Below, piece by piece: positions 3,023-63,429 of a stretch of 64,000 bases of DNA (positions are counted from its first letter, which is position 1; each line of letters begins with the position of its first letter). Origin of the DNA: a virus; the IMG/VR virus record IMGVR_UViG_3300045988_152944; one strand, 5' to 3'. A program made the position numbers and the translations under genes. The notes below the pieces were generated by a model that saw only the letters and a list, made by a program, of their open reading frames with translations, did no database searches and had not been told where the DNA came from.

Positions 3023-3841
3023 TTAGAAGTTGATAATTAACGTGTCTCCTGAAAGTTCGAAGGTGGGTATATCACTTGCCTTTGCGCCGCCTGCTTCAGT
3101 TAAAATCTCACTTGGTGTCCTGTAATATATCCAGCCGTTACTATCGAATACACATACCATTCCAGTTCCCGAACCTTTGTTAGACTTAACACTCGATTGC
3201 AACCAACTGCCTTTTACATATCCGCTTGCGTTGATTGAATAACCACCGTCTTCTCCTGTTATTGTTTGCCCTCCTGTGAACGTATTATTTCCAGCAAGGT
3301 TTGCCTTTCCACTTATATCTTGATGACTTGTTATTACCGTACCTAAATCTACAACACCACTCGTACCTTTACTTCCACCATTCATCTTGATTTCAGTAAT
3401 AGTACCAGTTTTGTTCAAGCCAGGAAATGCTGTTTCATTAACGCCAACGTCGCTTGTACCTAATGTAATATCAGCATTTAGAGCTTTATGATTAACTTTT
3501 CTTGTGTTAGGTACAGCATTGTCTGCTTTTGTACCTTGTGCTGCAGTAGCAAAGAATCCTACGTCTTTTTGAGCAGCAGTGCCCAATCCGTTGACCGTGC
3601 TTTCGAGGCTAGCGATTCTATTGTCATAATCTATCAAGGCAAACGGGAGATTATTGATTGTTCTCGAACCGTCGCCAATTTTGAAACGAACTGCTTGTGT
3701 CTGGACTCCGCTGGTGTTATATTCCGCATCGTATATCACGATTTCTCCCTTTTTGGGGATAAAAGTCGTTGCTTTTGCCCAGTTGGCAGCAGTATCGTGC
3801 TTTTGTTGTATTCTAGAAGTTATATTTTTTTCAGCAGCCAT
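3023..3841 (-). CDS. tail fibre / receptor-binding protein paralog (272 aa)
   Basis: Start moved to ATG 3841 (AAAGGAGG RBS). N-terminal KHDTAANW..KKGE..KIGDG..NLPF anchor is shared with the 5170, 6092 and 9512 genes. An internal module VPNTRK..AFPGLNKTGT..VVDLGTVITSHQDISGK is shared with the 6092 gene. Confidence 0.7.
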   Translation of the reverse strand: MAAEKNITSRIQQKHDTAANWAKATTFIPKKGEIVIYDAEYNTSGVQTQAVRFKIGDGSRTINNLPFALIDYDNRIASLESTVNGLGTAAQKDVGFFATAAQGTKADNAVPNTRKVNHKALNADITLGTSDVGVNETAFPGLNKTGTITEIKMNGGSKGTSGVVDLGTVITSHQDISGKANLAGNNTFTGGQTITGEDGGYSINASGYVKGSWLQSSVKSNKGSGTGMVCVFDSNGWIYYRTPSEILTEAGGAKASDIPTFELSGDTLIINF

Positions 3842-12054: not shown

Positions 12055-12320
12055 TGCTTTTATAGCCTCCTATATGTTAGAGTGGTTACTCCACGACAAT
12101 GTTATTCAAAGGTTTTACGTATGCAACACTGTTCCTACCCATCAGAACTGTTTAATCACATACCGCAGAGCGTAAGACTGGAGAGTACATCCTACAGTGC
12201 CTATATATTCTTTGATAACGTAGTGCTCGAAGCACTGAGTCTGATCAACTAGTGAGCTTGAAGCCCACGCCTATTTATGGGCTGGGTAGTTGACAAAAAC
12301 TCCTTTTGAAAATAAATTCG
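12055..12320 (-). ncRNA. candidate IscB omega-RNA (guide plus scaffold)
   Basis: 266-nt ORF-free, relatively GC-rich spacer directly 5' of iscB on the same strand, where IscB omega-RNAs are encoded. Local stems are present, e.g. AGTGCT-TCG-AGCACT. The fold was not verified. Confidence 0.55.
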
Positions 12321-33639: not shown

Positions 33640-34870
33640 AGTCACAATCTCCTCCAAATAAGTTATCAGCATCGAAGTCAAAATCTAAATCTTGCCCCAA
33701 AATTTCTTCCCACGCCGCTTGATTCCAATCGTCATCATCACACAACTCGCTGACGCGATCTTCGTGAATCACTTGTAAAGTGTATCGATTACCAAGGTAT
33801 TCAAATCCAACTTCGTTTTTCACGGGAATTTGAACAATTCCACGAGGGATTAAATCTAACACGCTTTCGTCTAAAATGTCCCAAGCAAAATCCCAATTAA
33901 ACTGTTTGTATTCTTTTGATAAACAATGGCAGTAATAAAGCAATTCTTTGCCACTGAACGACGAAGACTCAATCGCCTCTTGAATTTCCGTTCTGATAAA
34001 TGTCATTGCCCCGAATCTGATTTCATCATATTCGTCACGATTCGGTAAATCAATATTATCAACAATACTCTCCAAGGTTTTTACTTGTTTACGCGCTGTA
34101 TATTTGCGATACAAATCTTTAACAATAGCAAACCGTTCTTGATCAAATTCAAAACAATCCTCAAAGGTGGGCAACATACTTACCGCGTTTTTATTGAAAT
34201 TAATATCAAAATCGACATTTTCAAATTCCTTACACAACACATTCATTATGCACGGTGCGGTGATTAGTGGCGAATACTTTTGATAACGGCGTACCAAATT
34301 CATCTCGTCTTCTGATTTATTAGGTTTGGTTAAAAGTTTTTTAAATTTAACACCAAACATATTTTTGGACGCCATATTATAACTGTTTTCGTATTGTTTA
34401 AATTGTTGATTTAGTTCGGGATATAAATATCTAAAGAAATATGGTTTTTTAGAAATAACCATCGAGTTTCTTTTATATTTATCAGCCTTAACCGCATCAG
34501 TGTCATCATCATTAATTCGGATGAATTTCTTCCACTCTTTCGGCAACTCCGGCGCGGCTGTTCCTTTAATTCGATCAATTTCTTGACCAACAATTTCTCG
34601 AAGTAATTTAATACGCAATGTAAGTTCGTCTCTTTGCTCTTTTTGGGTGTCTTTTTGGAAAATTCCCTTCATCGCGTGCATTATTGTTGCGCAGTTAGAA
34701 AAACCTCCAACCCCAGTTCCCAATCCGCGAATATCAGTCGCGATTGAATTCTTTAAACAAATCTTTTGAACCGGCACCGCACCTTTCTCATATGTGATGA
34801 CATTGTGCCATTTTTGCGCACCCTTGATAAAGATTTTATTATCCGTGGACATTACTACATCTCCGTCAAC
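33629..34870 (-). CDS. YonO-like single-subunit RNA polymerase, exon 2
   Basis: Reading frame is open upstream of the track Met back to 34870 and reads VDGDVVMSTDNK, which completes a DxDGD motif when joined to exon 1. Confidence 0.6.
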   Translation of the reverse strand, partial: VDGDVVMSTDNKIFIKGAQKWHNVITYEKGAVPVQKICLKNSIATDIRGLGTGVGGFSNCATIMHAMKGIFQKDTQKEQRDELTLRIKLLREIVGQEIDRIKGTAAPELPKEWKKFIRINDDDTDAVKADKYKRNSMVISKKPYFFRYLYPELNQQFKQYENSYNMASKNMFGVKFKKLLTKPNKSEDEMNLVRRYQKYSPLITAPCIMNVLCKEFENVDFDINFNKNAVSMLPTFEDCFEFDQERFAIVKDLYRKYTARKQVKTLESIVDNIDLPNRDEYDEIRFGAMTFIRTEIQEAIESSSFSGKELLYYCHCLSKEYKQFNWDFAWDILDESVLDLIPRGIVQIPVKNEVGFEYLGNRYTLQVIHEDRVSELCDDDDWNQAAWEEILGQDLDFDFDADNLFGGDCDYDS

Positions 34871-35190
34871 CTTTACACCCTCGGTTTCCCGATATTTCTT
34901 AGGGGAGTAGATTATCTCATCAACTCATTTCCTGTTACCGTAGTGAGCTGCTCAGCGCTTTGAATGTTGGAGTTTCACCAACACCCTACTCTACTTGCTT
35001 ACTTTCAAACATATTTCTTGTTTGATACGCGTTCGATAATCGTTACACTTTCCTTATTAAAGGCTTAGCACGGTGTTCCCTACGCAGGTTCACCGTTAGC
35101 AGGATTTCATCCCACACCTTGGATTTCCAAGTTCACTGAGTTATCATTCGATTGTCACCAACCGACGGACCCTGTATACGTTAAGTCACT
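34871..35190 (-). other. group I-like self-splicing intron, ORF-less (320 nt)
   Basis: Stop-filled insert. The 5' exon ends in U (35191) and the intron ends in G (34871). Exon CCGAU can pair with intron GUCGG about 25 nt in (P1). Other stems: UCGG-GAAA-CCGA tetraloop hairpin, CUUGG-AAAU-CCAAG, GUUGG..CCAAC. Confidence 0.6.
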
Positions 35191-36827: not shown

Positions 36828-37376
36828 TTAATCTTCCTCTTTTTCGCGTTTAATAATATCTAGCAAATCATTCACCGTTTGTGTCAAATCTAAATTTGTC
36901 AAAACGTATTTGTTTTTATATTCCTTCTCGAACTCACAAAACTGGGCGTCTTCCGCAGCCATTCTCTTGTGGACAATTTCAACATCATCGCCTCGTTTCA
37001 TCAAGAATCCACGTTGTACATCCGCAGGTACAGAAATCAAAACAGCCACAATTTTTAATGGGTGTTTGTGGAAGTTCCAATACTTCCACAAATCCCCAAG
37101 TCCTTTAGGATCGATTATATAAAAATCACTATTTAATACTTGCGTAACTGTAGCAAAATATTCCACATCTCCAATTACAGTCTGTGCAATAATATCATCT
37201 TTATATTTATCCACATCCTCAGGTTGTACAAAAATGTGGGTGTCACCTTCATTAACTCTCTTGGGACGTGTGGTATAAGAACACACTTTCTTCATTCCTG
37301 TCAGTTGGCACACACGATCAACGACCGTATCTTTCCCGGCGCCACTTCTGCCAAGTACACAAAATAATGTTTTCAT
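36828..37376 (-). CDS. guanylate kinase-like P-loop nucleotide kinase (182 aa)
   Basis: GRSGAGKDT P-loop and SYTTRPKRVNEGDTHIFV, matching the guanylate kinase signature; GAGGAG RBS. Confidence 0.6.
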   Translation of the reverse strand: MKTLFCVLGRSGAGKDTVVDRVCQLTGMKKVCSYTTRPKRVNEGDTHIFVQPEDVDKYKDDIIAQTVIGDVEYFATVTQVLNSDFYIIDPKGLGDLWKYWNFHKHPLKIVAVLISVPADVQRGFLMKRGDDVEIVHKRMAAEDAQFCEFEKEYKNKYVLTNLDLTQTVNDLLDIIKREKEED

Positions 37377-37377
37377 T

Positions 37378-37947
37378 TTACTCCTCGATAATCGACGAAG
37401 GTTTCCCTACAAGTTCAGGATAGTTGGCATAAAACTTTACCAACGCTTCCAAGTCTTTAAAGTTATGTATGATATAAAAATCATCCTCATTACCCTCAAC
37501 ATGATTACGTTGATGGTTAACGTCGCCAGTAAACAACACAACCATATCAGCTAAATAATTAGCACACATACGATAATCGCTACCGACATATATAACCGAA
37601 TCTCCAAAAAGACGAATTTTTTCTATATCCGCTGCTGTTGCTGTTCTATAAGCTTCAGCATAACTTTCAATCTCGATAGTGAGCTTGCAGTTCTCCGCAA
37701 GTTCTGTGATGGTATCAAGAAAATCTTCCGCACCTTCTCGAATCCACAAGTCGGGCACATTCAGACTTTTGATACAATTAATGATTTCGAAATCATGATC
37801 TTGACCACAGAACGTTTGGAATTTGTTTTCGTAAAAATCGATTACAGAATAATTAGTGTTGTATTTTTCATTAAGTTTTTTGGTTATTGTCTCCGCACAA
37901 TTAAAAATTACATTGTCTTCTACAATTAGATGTAAGTGTTTGCTCAT
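37378..37947 (-). CDS. hypothetical protein (189 aa), first gene of the left arm
   Basis: Track ORF with weak AAGGA RBS, downstream of promoter P1. Confidence 0.5.
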   Translation of the reverse strand: MSKHLHLIVEDNVIFNCAETITKKLNEKYNTNYSVIDFYENKFQTFCGQDHDFEIINCIKSLNVPDLWIREGAEDFLDTITELAENCKLTIEIESYAEAYRTATAADIEKIRLFGDSVIYVGSDYRMCANYLADMVVLFTGDVNHQRNHVEGNEDDFYIIHNFKDLEALVKFYANYPELVGKPSSIIEE

Positions 37948-37984
37948 AGTAGTGTAGTTCCTTAGAAGTTATATAGATTCCCAA

Positions 37985-38006
37985 AGAAAGAGGATATTCT
38001 CTTTCT
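37985..38006 (-). promoter_or_regulatory. 5'-leader hairpin between P1 and the first left-arm gene
   Basis: Perfect AGAAAGAG-N6-CTCTTTCT. Confidence 0.4.
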
Positions 38007-38021
38007 TCTTATTATATTTAT

Positions 38022-38050
38022 ATTATAACACATATCATATTTAATATCAA
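38022..38050 (-). promoter_or_regulatory. sigma-70/sigma-A type promoter P1 (leftward)
   Basis: TTGATA-17 nt-TATAAT on the minus strand. Confidence 0.7.
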
Positions 38051-38108
38051 CCTATGATGACATTTTTATAAAATTTTTAACATTTTTTAATTTTTCTGTC
38101 ATTGTAGG

Positions 38109-38137
38109 TTGACTTTTCTTTTCAAAGTTGTTATAAT
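38109..38137 (+). promoter_or_regulatory. consensus promoter P2 (rightward)
   Basis: TTGACT-17 nt-TATAAT. Confidence 0.75.
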
Positions 38138-38139
38138 TT

Positions 38140-38291
38140 GGGTGGTGGGCGGGTATAGATAAGAAGATCTTTTTTATTTATATATAAATATATAATATAT
38201 ATTCTATAATTATAACATATAATATGTTAAATATATATTAAAATATAATATAATAAAAAATAGTGATCTCATTCTCCCGACCACCCACCCC
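38140..38291. repeat. G-box / AT-core / C-box element between convergent promoters
   Basis: GGGTGGTGGGCGGG (38140-38153) and CCCGACCACCCACCCC (38276-38291) are imperfect inverted repeats. They bracket ~120 bp of almost pure A/T. Confidence 0.7.
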
Positions 38292-38292
38292 T

Positions 38293-38321
38293 ATTATACA
38301 CAGAAAAATACCATTTGTCAA
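38293..38321 (-). promoter_or_regulatory. consensus promoter P3 (leftward)
   Basis: TTGACA-17 nt-TATAAT on the minus strand. Confidence 0.75.
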
Positions 38322-38421
38322 CTACCAATGACAGAAAATACAAAAAAATAAAAAAATATTTTCCACAAAGCAAAACTACCACGCATGCTCACAGAATCTT
38401 AAAGAATTATGTCATCTACGG

Positions 38422-38450
38422 TTGACTTTTGTTGGCACATAGTGTATAAT
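38422..38450 (+). promoter_or_regulatory. consensus promoter P4 (rightward, early arm)
   Basis: TTGACT-17 nt-TATAAT. Confidence 0.8.
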
Positions 38451-38552
38451 ATTTATATATAAGATATAAAAGGAGTATAGTGATGTAACAATCCTAATTA
38501 AATAGAGCAACAAATTCCAACCAAATAACCAACTATGCTATGATGAGGCTAC

Positions 38553-38750
38553 ATGACACGTAAATCTAATCCTACAACAACAACAGCAACCCCGCAACCA
38601 CAAAAACCACCAAAATCCCAAACTCCGAATCCTCAACCTCCGACGACTCGACAATTGCCCCGCGCAATTATCCACAAAAAGAAGAAACCCAAAAATCTTC
38701 CGCCGGAACCAATAACCGAAGATTCTTACATAGATCAAGTTATGAGTTAA
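38553..38750 (+). CDS. questionable Pro/Thr/Lys-rich ORF (65 aa), or an untranslated C-rich leader
   Basis: Open frame but no convincing RBS; extreme C/A-rich, G-poor composition. Confidence 0.25.
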   Translation: MTRKSNPTTTTATPQPQKPPKSQTPNPQPPTTRQLPRAIIHKKKKPKNLPPEPITEDSYIDQVMS

Positions 38751-38775
38751 ACGCCTAACCCCAAGGAGCAACCAA

Positions 38776-39144
38776 ATGTGTATTCTTCAAAAAACACTGC
38801 CTTATACTACCAAAACACGCCAACGTCTGTCAAGGTACCCAACCATTTACATTATTTGCTATTTCGCACACGTCGGTTGTTTATCTTTCCCTTTCACCGG
38901 GAAGCATGATAATAAAGGTCGCCCCCTTGTGTACCAGTTTGATGATCACGATGGTCTATATCCCGAGTATTGCCTTCGCAACATTAACGAAGTCACTTCC
39001 GTTCACATCTGTGAATGGACGACGAATGCTGACGACGTACAACGACTCATAACCAAATGGCAAACCAAATACGACGAATATCGCGCCGCAATGATCAAAA
39101 CTTATGAGGAAAACTTACAAGCCTATGAGAATAACTCTAACTAA
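38776..39144 (+). CDS. early protein, MCIL-family paralog A (122 aa)
   Basis: AAGGAG RBS. Alignable with the 40053 gene: MCIL.K.LP..KT...L...P.IY, PLVY.FDDH.G.YPEY.LR. Confidence 0.7.
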   Translation: MCILQKTLPYTTKTRQRLSRYPTIYIICYFAHVGCLSFPFTGKHDNKGRPLVYQFDDHDGLYPEYCLRNINEVTSVHICEWTTNADDVQRLITKWQTKYDEYRAAMIKTYEENLQAYENNSN

Positions 39145-39850
39145 CCAAAGCTGTTTTGACTTACTCAAAACCACGCCAGATAAATCAGTCGACTTGGTTC
39201 TCATCAATCCGCCCTACGAGGTCTCTAGAGATACAAATTTCCAATCAGGGGAACCCAAAGGCGCTGACACCGACCGCTTTCGCGTGTCGATGGATTTCGG
39301 CGAGTGGGATAATAATTTCACGGGGTTGGATTTGGTAATCAAAGAGTGCTACAGACTCTTAAAAGACGGCGGAACTTTAATATGCTTTTACGATCTGTGG
39401 AAGCTCACAACCTTAAAACACTACTTTGAGCTCGCGAACTTTAAACAGCTCCGTTTCATCGAATGGGTGAAAACAAATCCGGTCCCGCTTAATAGCAAAA
39501 CGAACTACCTCACAAATTCCAGAGAGATAGCCATCGTGGGTGTGAAAAAAGGGAAGCCGACATTCAATTCAGAGTATGACAATGGCATTTATAATTTTCC
39601 CATATGTCACGACAAAGGCAGATTCCACCCCACCCAAAAACCTGTCGCATTGCTTGAAGACTTGATTCTCAAACATTCGCACGAGAACGATACTGTTCTC
39701 GATTGTTTCGCCGGGAGCGGTTCGACCGCTGTCGCTGCCCATAACACGAACAGGAATTTCATCGGATGTGAACTGTCGAAAGAGTATTTCGACAAAACCT
39801 TGCAACGGTTCGACGCACTAGGGTTCAAATACACGGAGGCGGACCTATGA
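39125..39850 (+). CDS. DNA methyltransferase (beta-class N6A/N4C, orphan)
   Basis: Motif IV DLVLINPPY lies near the N-terminus and motif I DCFAGSGST near the C-terminus. No nuclease partner is nearby. The start could also be ATG 39104. Confidence 0.85.
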   Translation: MRITLTNQSCFDLLKTTPDKSVDLVLINPPYEVSRDTNFQSGEPKGADTDRFRVSMDFGEWDNNFTGLDLVIKECYRLLKDGGTLICFYDLWKLTTLKHYFELANFKQLRFIEWVKTNPVPLNSKTNYLTNSREIAIVGVKKGKPTFNSEYDNGIYNFPICHDKGRFHPTQKPVALLEDLILKHSHENDTVLDCFAGSGSTAVAAHNTNRNFIGCELSKEYFDKTLQRFDALGFKYTEADL

Positions 39851-40903: not shown

Positions 40904-40931
40904 GAGAGGGGGCCTGGCTCCTCTTTTTTTT
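40904..40931 (+). terminator. rho-independent terminator 1
   Basis: AGAGG..CCTCT stem followed by T8. Confidence 0.6.
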
Positions 40932-40934
40932 ATG

Positions 40935-40967
40935 GGCGCTGACTACGGATGTCGGCGCCTTTTTTTT
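40935..40967 (+). terminator. rho-independent terminator 2
   Basis: GGCGCTGAC-N7-GTCGGCGCC (1 mismatch) followed by T8. Confidence 0.7.
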
Positions 40968-40969
40968 AT

Positions 40970-41008
40970 GGGGAAATTGGGGAGGGGGTGGGATGGTGGG
41001 AAAATGGG
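40970..41008 (+). other. G-quadruplex-type G-tract cluster
   Basis: GGGG-AAATT-GGGG-A-GGGGG-T-GGG-AT-GG-T-GGG-AAAAT-GGG, directly after the terminators. Confidence 0.5.
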
Positions 41009-43517: not shown

Positions 43518-44009
43518 ATGTCTATTAAAATCAATCAAATTGCAGCAACCGCCAACATCATCAACGCTCTCGATGCAATGAAAGCAGACGAGAACATCAG
43601 CCTCGGCATCGAAGAAATCGAGTTTCCTGATGGAAGCAAAGAGAAATTCTATTACAACGGCGAGTCCGACAAACAAGCAGCCGTGCACTTCGCACAGATT
43701 TGCATCGATGTTTGCGCCGGCGACAGCGACAAAGCCAAACGTATGATGGCTTCGTGTTTCAAACTTCTCACTAAAGGCTACAATGTCGACGAAATTGTCC
43801 CGTCTGCGGAAAGCGAAATCAACACCGAAACTTATATTGATTATAAGAAAGGTGTCTTGCTCACGCCGTACGCGTCGGTTGTCGCGTCTCTCACCGAGGA
43901 TGAACTCAAAGCAACAAAGGGCAAAAAGAATCCCCTTACCAAATCACTCTTGCTCGAAAGATCGAGAACTGATTGTTTAGAAGACGCTCTTAAATATTAC
44001 GAGAGCTGA
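43518..44009 (+). CDS. hypothetical early protein (163 aa)
   Basis: AAAGGAGG RBS. Confidence 0.65.
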   Translation: MSIKINQIAATANIINALDAMKADENISLGIEEIEFPDGSKEKFYYNGESDKQAAVHFAQICIDVCAGDSDKAKRMMASCFKLLTKGYNVDEIVPSAESEINTETYIDYKKGVLLTPYASVVASLTEDELKATKGKKNPLTKSLLLERSRTDCLEDALKYYES

Positions 44010-44156
44010 ACCCCGCAAGGCCCGCACGAAAGTGTGAACGGCGCAAGCCCGTTGCCCTCTTAGGAGGGTGGCGCTCATGGTGTTCATAATGGCATCATCT
44101 TCGTAAAATAAAAATCTTGCTAATCGAAGACTAATGGCATAGAAAGGAGAATCATT

Positions 44157-59724: not shown

Positions 59725-59753
59725 ATTATAACACAGGGAGAGTGAAAAGTCAA
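59725..59753 (-). promoter_or_regulatory. consensus promoter
   Basis: TTGACT-17 nt-TATAAT on the minus strand. The post -10 sequence ATAAATATAA is shared with P1. Confidence 0.75.
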
Positions 59754-59900
59754 CAGGGAGTGACAAAATATTTATTTTTTTTATATGTTTCTTTCCGGAG
59801 TGATAACAGGTCAAATAGATGCGCAATTTCATTAACGCGCAACACCGCAGGTGTAAGCGTTTGAAACACTGGCGAAGCCGCGTAGGGGTTGAAGGGGACG

Positions 59901-62082: not shown

Positions 62083-62111
62083 ATTATACCACACGGCGGC
62101 GGGTATGTCAA
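62083..62111 (-). promoter_or_regulatory. consensus promoter
   Basis: TTGACA-17 nt-TATAAT on the minus strand. Confidence 0.75.
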
Positions 62112-62117
62112 CACAGG

Positions 62118-62147
62118 GTGACAAATACTTCTAACTTGTCGTATAAT
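62118..62147 (+). promoter_or_regulatory. back-to-back divergent promoter
   Basis: GTGACA-18 nt-TATAAT; its -35 is the other half of the TGTCA-N8-TGACA palindrome. Confidence 0.45.
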
Positions 62148-63407: not shown

Positions 63408-63429
63408 AATGTCACTTATAATTGACATT
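63408..63429. promoter_or_regulatory. perfect palindromic operator-like site
   Basis: AATGTCA-N8-TGACATT; the same TGTCA-N8-TGACA architecture as at six promoters. Confidence 0.6.

Follow-up and report, generated by a model that had tools for sequence, protein, structure and literature searches.

The question addressed here is which function is served by the non-coding region that separates the two gene arms of an uncultured large phage. The DNA analysed is a 64-kb stretch (the window, with position 1 as its first letter) of the virus record IMGVR_UViG_3300045988_152944. According to the open reading frame (ORF) lists, a leftward gene array runs unbroken from 113 to 37947 and a rightward array starts at 38553. 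The region between them, which will be called the hub, is the central control region of the phage. Both the GC skew and the AT skew change sign at the hub, coinciding with the strand switch, and the cumulative GC skew has its minimum there. We read the hub, tentatively and with somewhat less than even confidence, as a transcription and RNA-leader control region with four co-regulated promoters. The inner two of these belong to a promoter-leader cassette that was also found in many unrelated uncultured phages.

Promoters and operator-like palindromes of the hub

Promoters were defined by the sigma-70/sigmaA consensus (-35 TTGACA and -10 TATAAT with a spacer of 17 ± 1 bp) and searched for on both strands of the window. 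In the whole 64 kb 14 sites had at least 11 of the 12 matches. Four of them are situated within 430 bp inside the hub (Poisson P ~3e-6), each with a spacer of 17 nt, and these are exactly the four that had been named, with this spacer, in an earlier note on this DNA (the original prediction). From left to right the putative promoters are P1 (leftward), P2 (rightward), P3 (leftward) and P4 (rightward), so that P1/P2 and P3/P4 are placed back-to-back and P2/P3 face-to-face (Table 1). The -10 elements of P2 and P3 oppose each other at 38137 and 38293, with a mirror symmetry centred on 38215-38216. Given this order, the distal promoter of each arm is located beyond the distal promoter of the other arm and not, as had been stated, beyond its proximal one.

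The convergence of P2 and P3 on a shared A/T core, each with a G-rich start, had been predicted as well, and this geometry holds. It is also conserved: in an alignment of the window with six relatives (L005-L010; 7 genomes) every promoter hexamer and both G-rich boxes are retained. The C-rich complement of the right box (C-box) and the -10 of P3 are nearly invariant, reading CATTCTCCCG(A)CCACCCACCCCTATTATAC. The core itself measures ~100-220 bp among the relatives and is free in sequence, one relative carrying an (ATT)n run. What persists is its A/T richness and a short ATAACATAT motif, which occurs in 2-4 copies in the cores of the relatives. None of the sampled family members lacks the convergent pair of G-boxes, which is found as well in the more distant L138, a 150-kb contig in which the hub adjoins 5'-nucleotidase-like, dNMP-kinase and YonO-like genes. 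The same architecture was found in L165. If transcription starts ~7 nt past each -10, the RNAs from P2 and P3 would be complementary at their 5' ends over ~142 nt, which agrees with the ~140 nt originally proposed. As the geometry, the core and the antisense overlap hold and are conserved, head-on interference between the two promoters is a reasonable inference. The role of an early/left-arm switch that had been attached to it was not demonstrated. No repressor or integrase gene flanks the hub, and each arm has an outer promoter of its own.

The leaders of P1 and P4 resemble those of the putative promoters at 59.7, 62.1 and 62.8 kb, i.e. a short A/T stretch that leads into a ribosome-binding site (RBS), and those of P2 and P3 differ from them. 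In the P1 leader the short A/T stretch is followed by a hairpin and then by the RBS of a gene for a 189-aa protein. The P4 leader contains, at 38470-38488 (+), a strong Shine-Dalgarno sequence AAGGAG and then the two-codon mini-ORF GTG ATG TAA, an arrangement that is kept in the two closest relatives.

A palindrome TGTCA-N8-TGAC(A) is positioned over the -35 of all four hub promoters. Nine TGTCA-N8-TGAC sites were counted in the window, against 0.6 expected. Further copies are present on promoters at 59725-59765 and at 62083-62147 (a back-to-back pair at 62.1 kb), and another at 63410-63427; the 62.8-kb promoter has none. TGTCA-N8-TGACA is likely to be a common operator for the four promoters, and the hub together with the palindromes at 59.7, 62.1 and 63.4 kb looks like one regulon. 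Since the same palindrome is found on all four promoters, they would probably be shut together by one DNA-binding protein. Pfam and PHROG searches of the nearby small genes did not reveal a DNA-binding domain (helix-turn-helix or repressor) for such a protein. In the Bacillus phage SPbeta the repeated operator SPBRE (SPBRE/MrpR) is found on many early promoters, including that of yonP-yonO (PMC10516654). TGTCA-N8-TGACA is likewise repeated on the promoters of a phage that encodes YonO, but it is another motif, although the SPBRE sequence itself was not compared.

The G-box cassette and its leader RNA

P2 and P3 are distinguished by the G-rich box (G-box) at their start sites. The left G-box comprises four G-tracts with 1-nt loops. 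The first tract probably lies upstream of +1, which implies that all four tracts are present on the DNA strand only. When G-quadruplex patterns were searched for in the 64 kb, the canonical G3x4 pattern was unmatched; a relaxed 3-2-2-3 pattern with 1-2-nt loops matched both boxes and one other site. This sole other G-quadruplex-like motif lies at 40908-41005 (+), where the tandem intrinsic terminators 40908-40922 and 40934-40960 are followed by the G-tract run GGGGAAATTGGGGAGGGGGTGGGATGGTGGG. Between the boxes, the inner 93 nt of the A/T core contain only four G/C, and the core is the only 100-nt stretch in the window with at least 88% A/T. Its positions 38154-38163 are also the tail of the extended left G-box. 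The arms of the hub inverted repeat are 71-89% complementary and so form an imperfect palindrome.

To what extent the box occurs elsewhere was assessed by scanning IMG/VR for a consensus promoter followed by N0-3 and GGGTGGNNGG, with the complementary C-rich box as control. The pattern was found at 72 loci and the control at none, and the box is thus strand-specific. All sampled lineages have the four G-tracts, spaced by loops of 1-2 nt, but they vary in the bases of these loops and in where the short tract is placed. The box often continues as GGGCGGG-(A/T)A(A/T)AGATAA, and the extended form GGGTGG-N1-2-GGGCGGG-WAWAGATAA was present at 23 loci. The complete cassette consists of a consensus promoter, a G-tract box over the discriminator and the first ~15 transcribed nt, a non-coding A/T-rich leader, and a second promoter or an RBS. 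Cassettes are intergenic and stand at the heads of transcription units before unrelated genes, where a second, ordinary promoter normally follows. As judged from its sequence, the hub of the window is two G-box cassettes nested face to face. Each of them is followed by the outer promoter region of the other arm and then by the ordinary promoter of its own arm.

In a group of phages of ~130 kb two cassettes occur per genome, 60-75 kb apart, one before unannotated genes and the other before a collagen-repeat ORF that is tail-fibre-like by reading only. A TerL packaging operon lies behind the cassette in two groups of small contigs, and other genes headed by it encode dUTPase and NrdD, and a sigma factor. 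In small phages the leader is only 60-75 nt long and not especially A/T-rich. One common gene downstream of the cassettes was not found. Several further identities were considered and rejected: a miniature inverted-repeat element (MITE) with terminal inverted repeats, as many cassettes are single-ended; a Shine-Dalgarno or STAB-SD role of the G-box, which fits some variants only; and, for the small-phage groups, a cos site ahead of the terminase gene, as the boxes there are not at constant contig ends. A nearly identical extended G-box of 24 nt was also seen in phage contigs of 42-62% GC that have no consensus -35 (L200 1908-1931; L201, - strand, 3339-3361; L202 182-205). One of these boxes precedes helicase genes and one lies between TerL and portal, flanked by terminator hairpins. 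In some other cassettes (L103 ~6410, L124 ~2470, L160, L114 and L121) the last part of the A/T leader is a run of alternating purines and pyrimidines, ACGTGCGCGTATAC or (GT)n, which differs in length and is prone to Z-DNA formation and slippage.

By blastn the cassette was absent from ~50,000 GenBank phage records, and no counterpart was found in Rfam, by blastn against GenBank phages or in the literature searched. Rfam gave no match at E<=1 in 37000-39500 and none that overlapped the G-boxes in 8 other loci. The individual parts of the hub, i.e. face-to-face promoters, tandem promoters and a promoter followed by an A/T stretch, are known; it is the conserved strand-specific G-box cassette for which no counterpart was found.

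Evidence on the role of the box in RNA comes from the ~130-kb group. In five genomes the A/T leader of one cassette ends in ATCTATTCC...CAACCACCC, the complement of the 5' GGGGUGGUUGG...GGAAUAGAU. Where the C-box departs from the perfect complement, all eight changes in helix 1 and three of the four in helix 2 are C to T, and all of these are G.U-compatible. A clear U-tract follows directly after the C-box helix in three of the five genomes, and then the RBS. The G.U-compatible variation suggests that in the ~130-kb group the very 5' end of the RNA forms a helix with the end of the leader and acts as a panhandle attenuator. In the window the RNAs from P2 and P3 are predicted to fold as long hairpins closed by the boxes, with -34.5 and -39.7 kcal/mol (z = -4.2 and -5.0), respectively. 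The likely shared operator, the identity of P2 and P3 as G-box cassettes and the capacity of G-box and C-box to pair as RNA are all new with respect to the original prediction.

Table 1. Location of the hub elements and of the YonO-like gene in the window
Feature	Position	Strand	Basis or remark
Non-coding hub	37948-38552 (605 bp)		ORF lists; between leftward gene 37378-37947 (-) and rightward ORF 38553-38750 (+)
10-bp stem-loop in P1 leader	37984-38007	-	Listed by the scan as terminator-like on the + strand
P1, outer leftward promoter (putative), TTGATA-17-TATAAT, extended -10, 11/12	38022-38050	-	Consensus scan; kept in relatives
Operator-like TGTCA-N8-TGAT over P1 -35	38046-38062	-	Motif scan
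Operator-like TGTCA-N8-TGAC over P2 -35	38097-38113	+	Motif scan
P2, inner rightward G-box promoter (putative), TTGACT-17-TATAAT, extended -10, 11/12	38109-38137	+	Hexamers invariant in 7 aligned genomes
Left G-box, GGGTGGTGGGCGGG at 38140-38153 plus TATAGATAAG	38140-38163	+	Spans P2 discriminator and first ~15-20 transcribed nt
A/T core, 123 nt, 89% A/T	38154-38276		Length and sequence hypervariable among relatives
Central palindrome TAACATAT-A-ATATGTTA	38213-38229		Inverted-repeat search
Right G-box, GGGGTGGGTGGTCGGG on - strand (C-box on + strand)	38277-38292	-	With P3 -10, most conserved stretch of the hub
P3, inner leftward G-box promoter (putative), TTGACA-17-TATAAT, 12/12	38293-38321	-	Consensus scan; conserved
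Perfect palindrome TGTCA-N8-TGACA over P3 -35	38316-38333		Motif scan
DnaA-box-like TTTTCCACA	38359-38367	+	8/9 match; judged outside the element
Operator-like TGTCA-N8-TGAC over P4 -35	38410-38426	+	Motif scan
P4, outer rightward promoter (putative), TTGACT-17-TATAAT, 11/12	38422-38450	+	Equivalent promoter in all relatives
YonO-like single-subunit RNA polymerase gene, third gene of left arm, downstream of P1 and P3	35155-36825	-	tblastn with SPbeta YonO and relatives; Pfam RdRP and PHROG matches

Leader control, replication origin and other readings

In the reading that we tentatively prefer, host sigmaA polymerase would start the transcription of both arms at the hub, which would be the main control region of early transcription. 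P1 and P4 would be ordinary mRNA promoters with short leaders. The P2 and P3 cassettes would share one leader region, in which each G-box provides the C-box complement for the opposing transcript. Each inner transcript could then form a panhandle hairpin of ~150 nt, closed by pairing of G-box and C-box, that sequesters its 5' end and, ahead of the arm genes, serves for pausing, attenuation or processing. The two streams of polymerase would collide and their RNAs could pair over the shared leader. In this manner P2 and P3 may give each arm a second input that is controlled by the leader, and the two inputs would interfere with one another.

Two known systems resemble parts of this arrangement. 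The facing promoters of the coliphages 186 (pR/pL) and P2 (Pe/Pc) are also strong promoters that fire at each other with overlapping transcripts, and interference is expected at the hub as it is there. In 186 and P2, however, the lytic operon has one of the facing promoters as its main promoter and the lysogenic operon the other, and one arm carries the repressor gene. The genes that flank the hub gave no helix-turn-helix, repressor or integrase match. The hub also has an extra outer promoter in each arm and 142-270 bp of A/T filler between the promoters. The late promoter PR' of lambda is similar in that a strong constitutive promoter at the head of a long operon is followed by a non-coding leader of ~150-200 nt (6S RNA/tR', Q antitermination), and in the ~130-kb group the leader also ends in a hairpin and a U-tract just before the first gene. 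It differs from the cassettes in that no Q-like protein or binding site was identified for them, that the hairpin of the window is without a U-tract and that the terminator stem formed by the G-box uses the very 5' end of the RNA.

Several observations weigh against leader control at the hub. The promoters, start sites and hairpins are predictions only. A scan of 38140-38300 revealed no terminator, and the hairpin tails UAUUAUAC and AAAUUAUA are poor U-tracts, so that the hairpins are not terminators of the classical kind. The complementarity of the boxes within the hub is weaker evidence and no proof of an RNA function, because it follows automatically from two inverted copies. Nor can the panhandle be the universal role of the G-box, as other cassette lineages have no C-box. 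The near-identity of the 24-nt box across contigs of 42-62% GC suggests recognition by a conserved factor that is outside the model. Finally, the easily melted A/T core, unique in the window and placed at the strand switch, fits a replication origin equally well.

The main alternative, that the hub is a bidirectional origin primed by transcription, appears possible, if on balance rather unlikely. The inner promoter and the A/T core would serve as promoter and unwinding element. The G-tract RNA would re-anneal to the C-rich template behind the polymerase to form an R-loop, the core would open and the RNA would prime the leading strand, while the non-template G-box may fold as a quadruplex. Two inverted copies would then yield two divergent forks, co-directional with the genes of both arms. 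This is the only form in which the origin suggested in the original prediction survives. Its support by the DnaA-box-like TTTTCCACA fails: the window has 31 matches with one mismatch, this site included, where 19 are expected, and the closest relatives L005, L006 and L010 lack it. A DnaA-type origin was rejected, as the box is neither conserved nor enriched at the hub and no conserved DnaA-box cluster, as in an oriC-like origin, was found beside the unwinding element. Clear iterons were not found either.

An R-loop origin is supported by the core, which lies between GC clamps and has no equal in A/T content within the 64 kb. Its A/T richness is kept while sequence and length are free, as expected for an unwinding element. 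At the start site itself it is the non-template strand that bears the G clusters. The strand switch and the minimum of the cumulative GC skew also coincide with the hub, but the skew signal is confounded by the orientation of the genes, and convergent transcription would add positive supercoils to the core and so oppose its melting. The same cassette moreover heads the operons of small phages with their short and not especially A/T-rich leaders, and occurs twice per genome in the ~130-kb group. The G.U-compatible variation and the U-tract in that group point to a hairpin in the RNA, but could conceivably also reflect a terminated primer.

Among the origin systems that were compared, the ori of the lactococcal Ceduovirus c2 is the closest in layout: as at the hub, a non-coding stretch between divergent gene blocks is bounded by tandem promoters, the sequence between which varies with the lineage (PMC7150918). 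The first promoter (PE1) has no RBS and makes a non-coding transcript that is implicated in the initiation of replication, and the second (PE2) precedes genes (PMC7150918). Homology to the ori types of c2, bIL67 or 923 was not found with a 1.8-kb query across the hub (megablast only). The c2 region is, on reading, unrelated in sequence and neither extremely A/T-rich nor palindromic; it works in one direction only and has no G-box at the start site. Its origin function is proven, whereas the hub is a putative origin. The distant relative PMBT24 has an almost pure-A/T gap of ~650 bp beside its YonO gene, and the gene list of the authors, on our reading, names no origin-binding initiator (PMC11035940). 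The hub also shares with oriF and oriG of T4 and the primary origin of T7 a promoter directly upstream of an easily melted A/T stretch; an R-loop at the hub is predicted only. Such origins can be present several times per genome and at the heads of genes, and they use phage-modified or phage RNA polymerases. Unlike the hub, they lack a G-tract box and an inverted duplication. Because the origin promoters of T4 also express genes, an origin and leader control are not mutually exclusive at the hub.

A wider proposal, which must be called doubtful, is that the G-box represents an undescribed class of promoter-proximal element that reprograms host RNA polymerase just after initiation in diverse phages, with the hub as its bidirectional form. 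The element would be defined by four non-template G-tracts with 1-2-nt loops over the discriminator and the first ~15 transcribed bases, often in the form GGGCGGG-AATAGATAA. Possible mechanisms are a G-quadruplex or R-loop that primes replication or boosts re-initiation, and a put- or Q-like loading site for termination resistance.

It is improbable that P2 and P3 are mobile regulatory cassettes without a joint function, spread by recombination in the way of the PeSL cassettes of T4-type phages. The G-rich start would then aid escape from a consensus promoter, and the face-to-face layout and the junk core would be by-products of two insertions. Identical boxes of 23-24 nt are indeed distributed patchily across phages that are otherwise unalignable, and the hypervariable core contains microsatellites. 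PeSLs offer a precedent as short conserved intergenic cassettes with an early sigma-70 promoter that are common to divergent T4-type genomes (PMC2839356, PMC4122927). The likeness is that of a conserved promoter-containing cassette in divergent genomes; sequence and layout are different, and PeSLs are numerous in each genome and border variable genes, whereas a genome has one or two G-box cassettes, which head major transcription units. Against mere mobility, neither L138 nor any sampled member of the family has lost the convergent pair, the four-tract pattern is conserved beyond plain G-richness and the C-box changes are RNA-compatible.

It is highly improbable that the products themselves are the function, either two complementary RNAs of ~150 nt or a small peptide, as in a pair of small RNAs or a module like a type I toxin-antitoxin system. 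The perfect antisense overlap and a hydrophobic ORF of 20-24 aa on the P3 transcript, starting at GGGAGAATG, would suit this explanation. By reading, however, the ORF has only 9 and 4 codons in relatives, the Shine-Dalgarno sequence is 1-2 nt from the ATG, the sequence of the core is not conserved, and neither a terminator in the scan of 38140-38300 nor an Rfam match was found.

It is hardly credible that the hub is a physical genome end, be it a pac site, a cos site or a hairpin telomere. In favour of an end, at least 11 contigs from IMG/VR or metagenome-assembled genomes (MAGs) stop within ~170 nt of a G-box promoter, including both ends of the 135-kb contig 172055, and the records of CB457P1 and MT835481 begin in the equivalent A/T region. 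The break points, however, vary from contig to contig over the core, six other contigs have the hub in their interior, as does the window, and the palindrome is imperfect. Breaks in assembly are readily explained by the extreme A/T content together with variation in length between strains. PMBT24 (~31% YonO identity) is in addition circularly permuted and of the pac type, with a pac site that its authors place at the start of the record (PMC11035940), ~9 kb from the A/T gap. The contig breaks in the core are most likely an assembly artefact at an extremely A/T-rich, strain-variable palindrome. The records of Enterocloster phage CB457P1 (L196 1-130; L197, end) and fecal scaffold MT835481 (L198 1-40) start in a pure-A/T block beside a YonO-like gene, and the record of CB457P1 closes with more than 50 consecutive T. 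Breaks in assembly probably account for these record ends. PMBT24 (L199 1830-2560) shows the gap of ~650 bp intact.

The phage, its gene arms and the meaning of the hub

The DNA of the window had no match among GenBank phages and PLSDB plasmids (megablast/blastn), and a 1.8-kb query across the hub gave zero matches in the phage database (megablast only). Relatives of 95-140 kb in IMG/VR carry a YonO that is 83-99% identical. Among the MAG contigs with this hub, one has the label Treponema and the others have the label Clostridia. The source is an uncultured phage of 95-140 kb with a YonO-type polymerase, and its host probably belongs to the Clostridia.

The left arm opens with the gene for the 189-aa protein, to which no function was assigned, followed by a guanylate-kinase-like gene and then the YonO-like gene. 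At the start of the right arm, small genes without an assigned function and a DNA methyltransferase gene are found. The YonO-like polymerase of the window has 556 aa, compared with ~840 aa for SPbeta YonO, and aligns to the central portion of the latter, which indicates a compact variant. An obligate tie of the hub to YonO was rejected, as most YonO-like loci have no G-boxes or extreme A/T island upstream. In SPbeta, nothing similar was found in the yonR-yonP gap or the region upstream of yonK, neither a G-box nor an A/T core. In SPbeta an unannotated RNA and the start site that depends on YonO lie downstream of yonO and yonN and upstream of yonK. Directly downstream of the YonO-like gene in the window lies a non-coding gap of 302 nt (34853-35154, -) that folds better than its shuffles (z = -2.8). 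This gap is a candidate YonO promoter or leader, because the YonO-dependent start in SPbeta has a comparable position. YonO of SPbeta is the single-subunit RNA polymerase for the late genes of that phage (PMC5467207). Two structured RNAs were identified elsewhere in the window. A Twister-sister self-cleaving ribozyme is located between ORFs of the rightward arm at 44008-44087 (+), with 64 bits for a gathering score of 34. A HEARO RNA (HNH-endonuclease-associated RNA; 133 bits for a gathering score of 83) lies in the left arm at 12082-12294 (-) and may mark an IscB/IS-like insertion.

For those who work with such genomes the hub calls for caution, since assemblies of these phages break at it and thereby mimic genome ends. 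The G-box cassette could also serve as a strong-promoter/leader part in the synthetic biology of Firmicutes. Hardly any work exists on large phages of gut Clostridia that encode YonO, and in them the hub would be the entry of host polymerase to both arms, including the operon for the phage's own RNA polymerase. Since the strand-specific cassette is shared by many unrelated uncultured phages, it may be an as yet undescribed device of general use, acting in the expression of phage genes or when replication is initiated.

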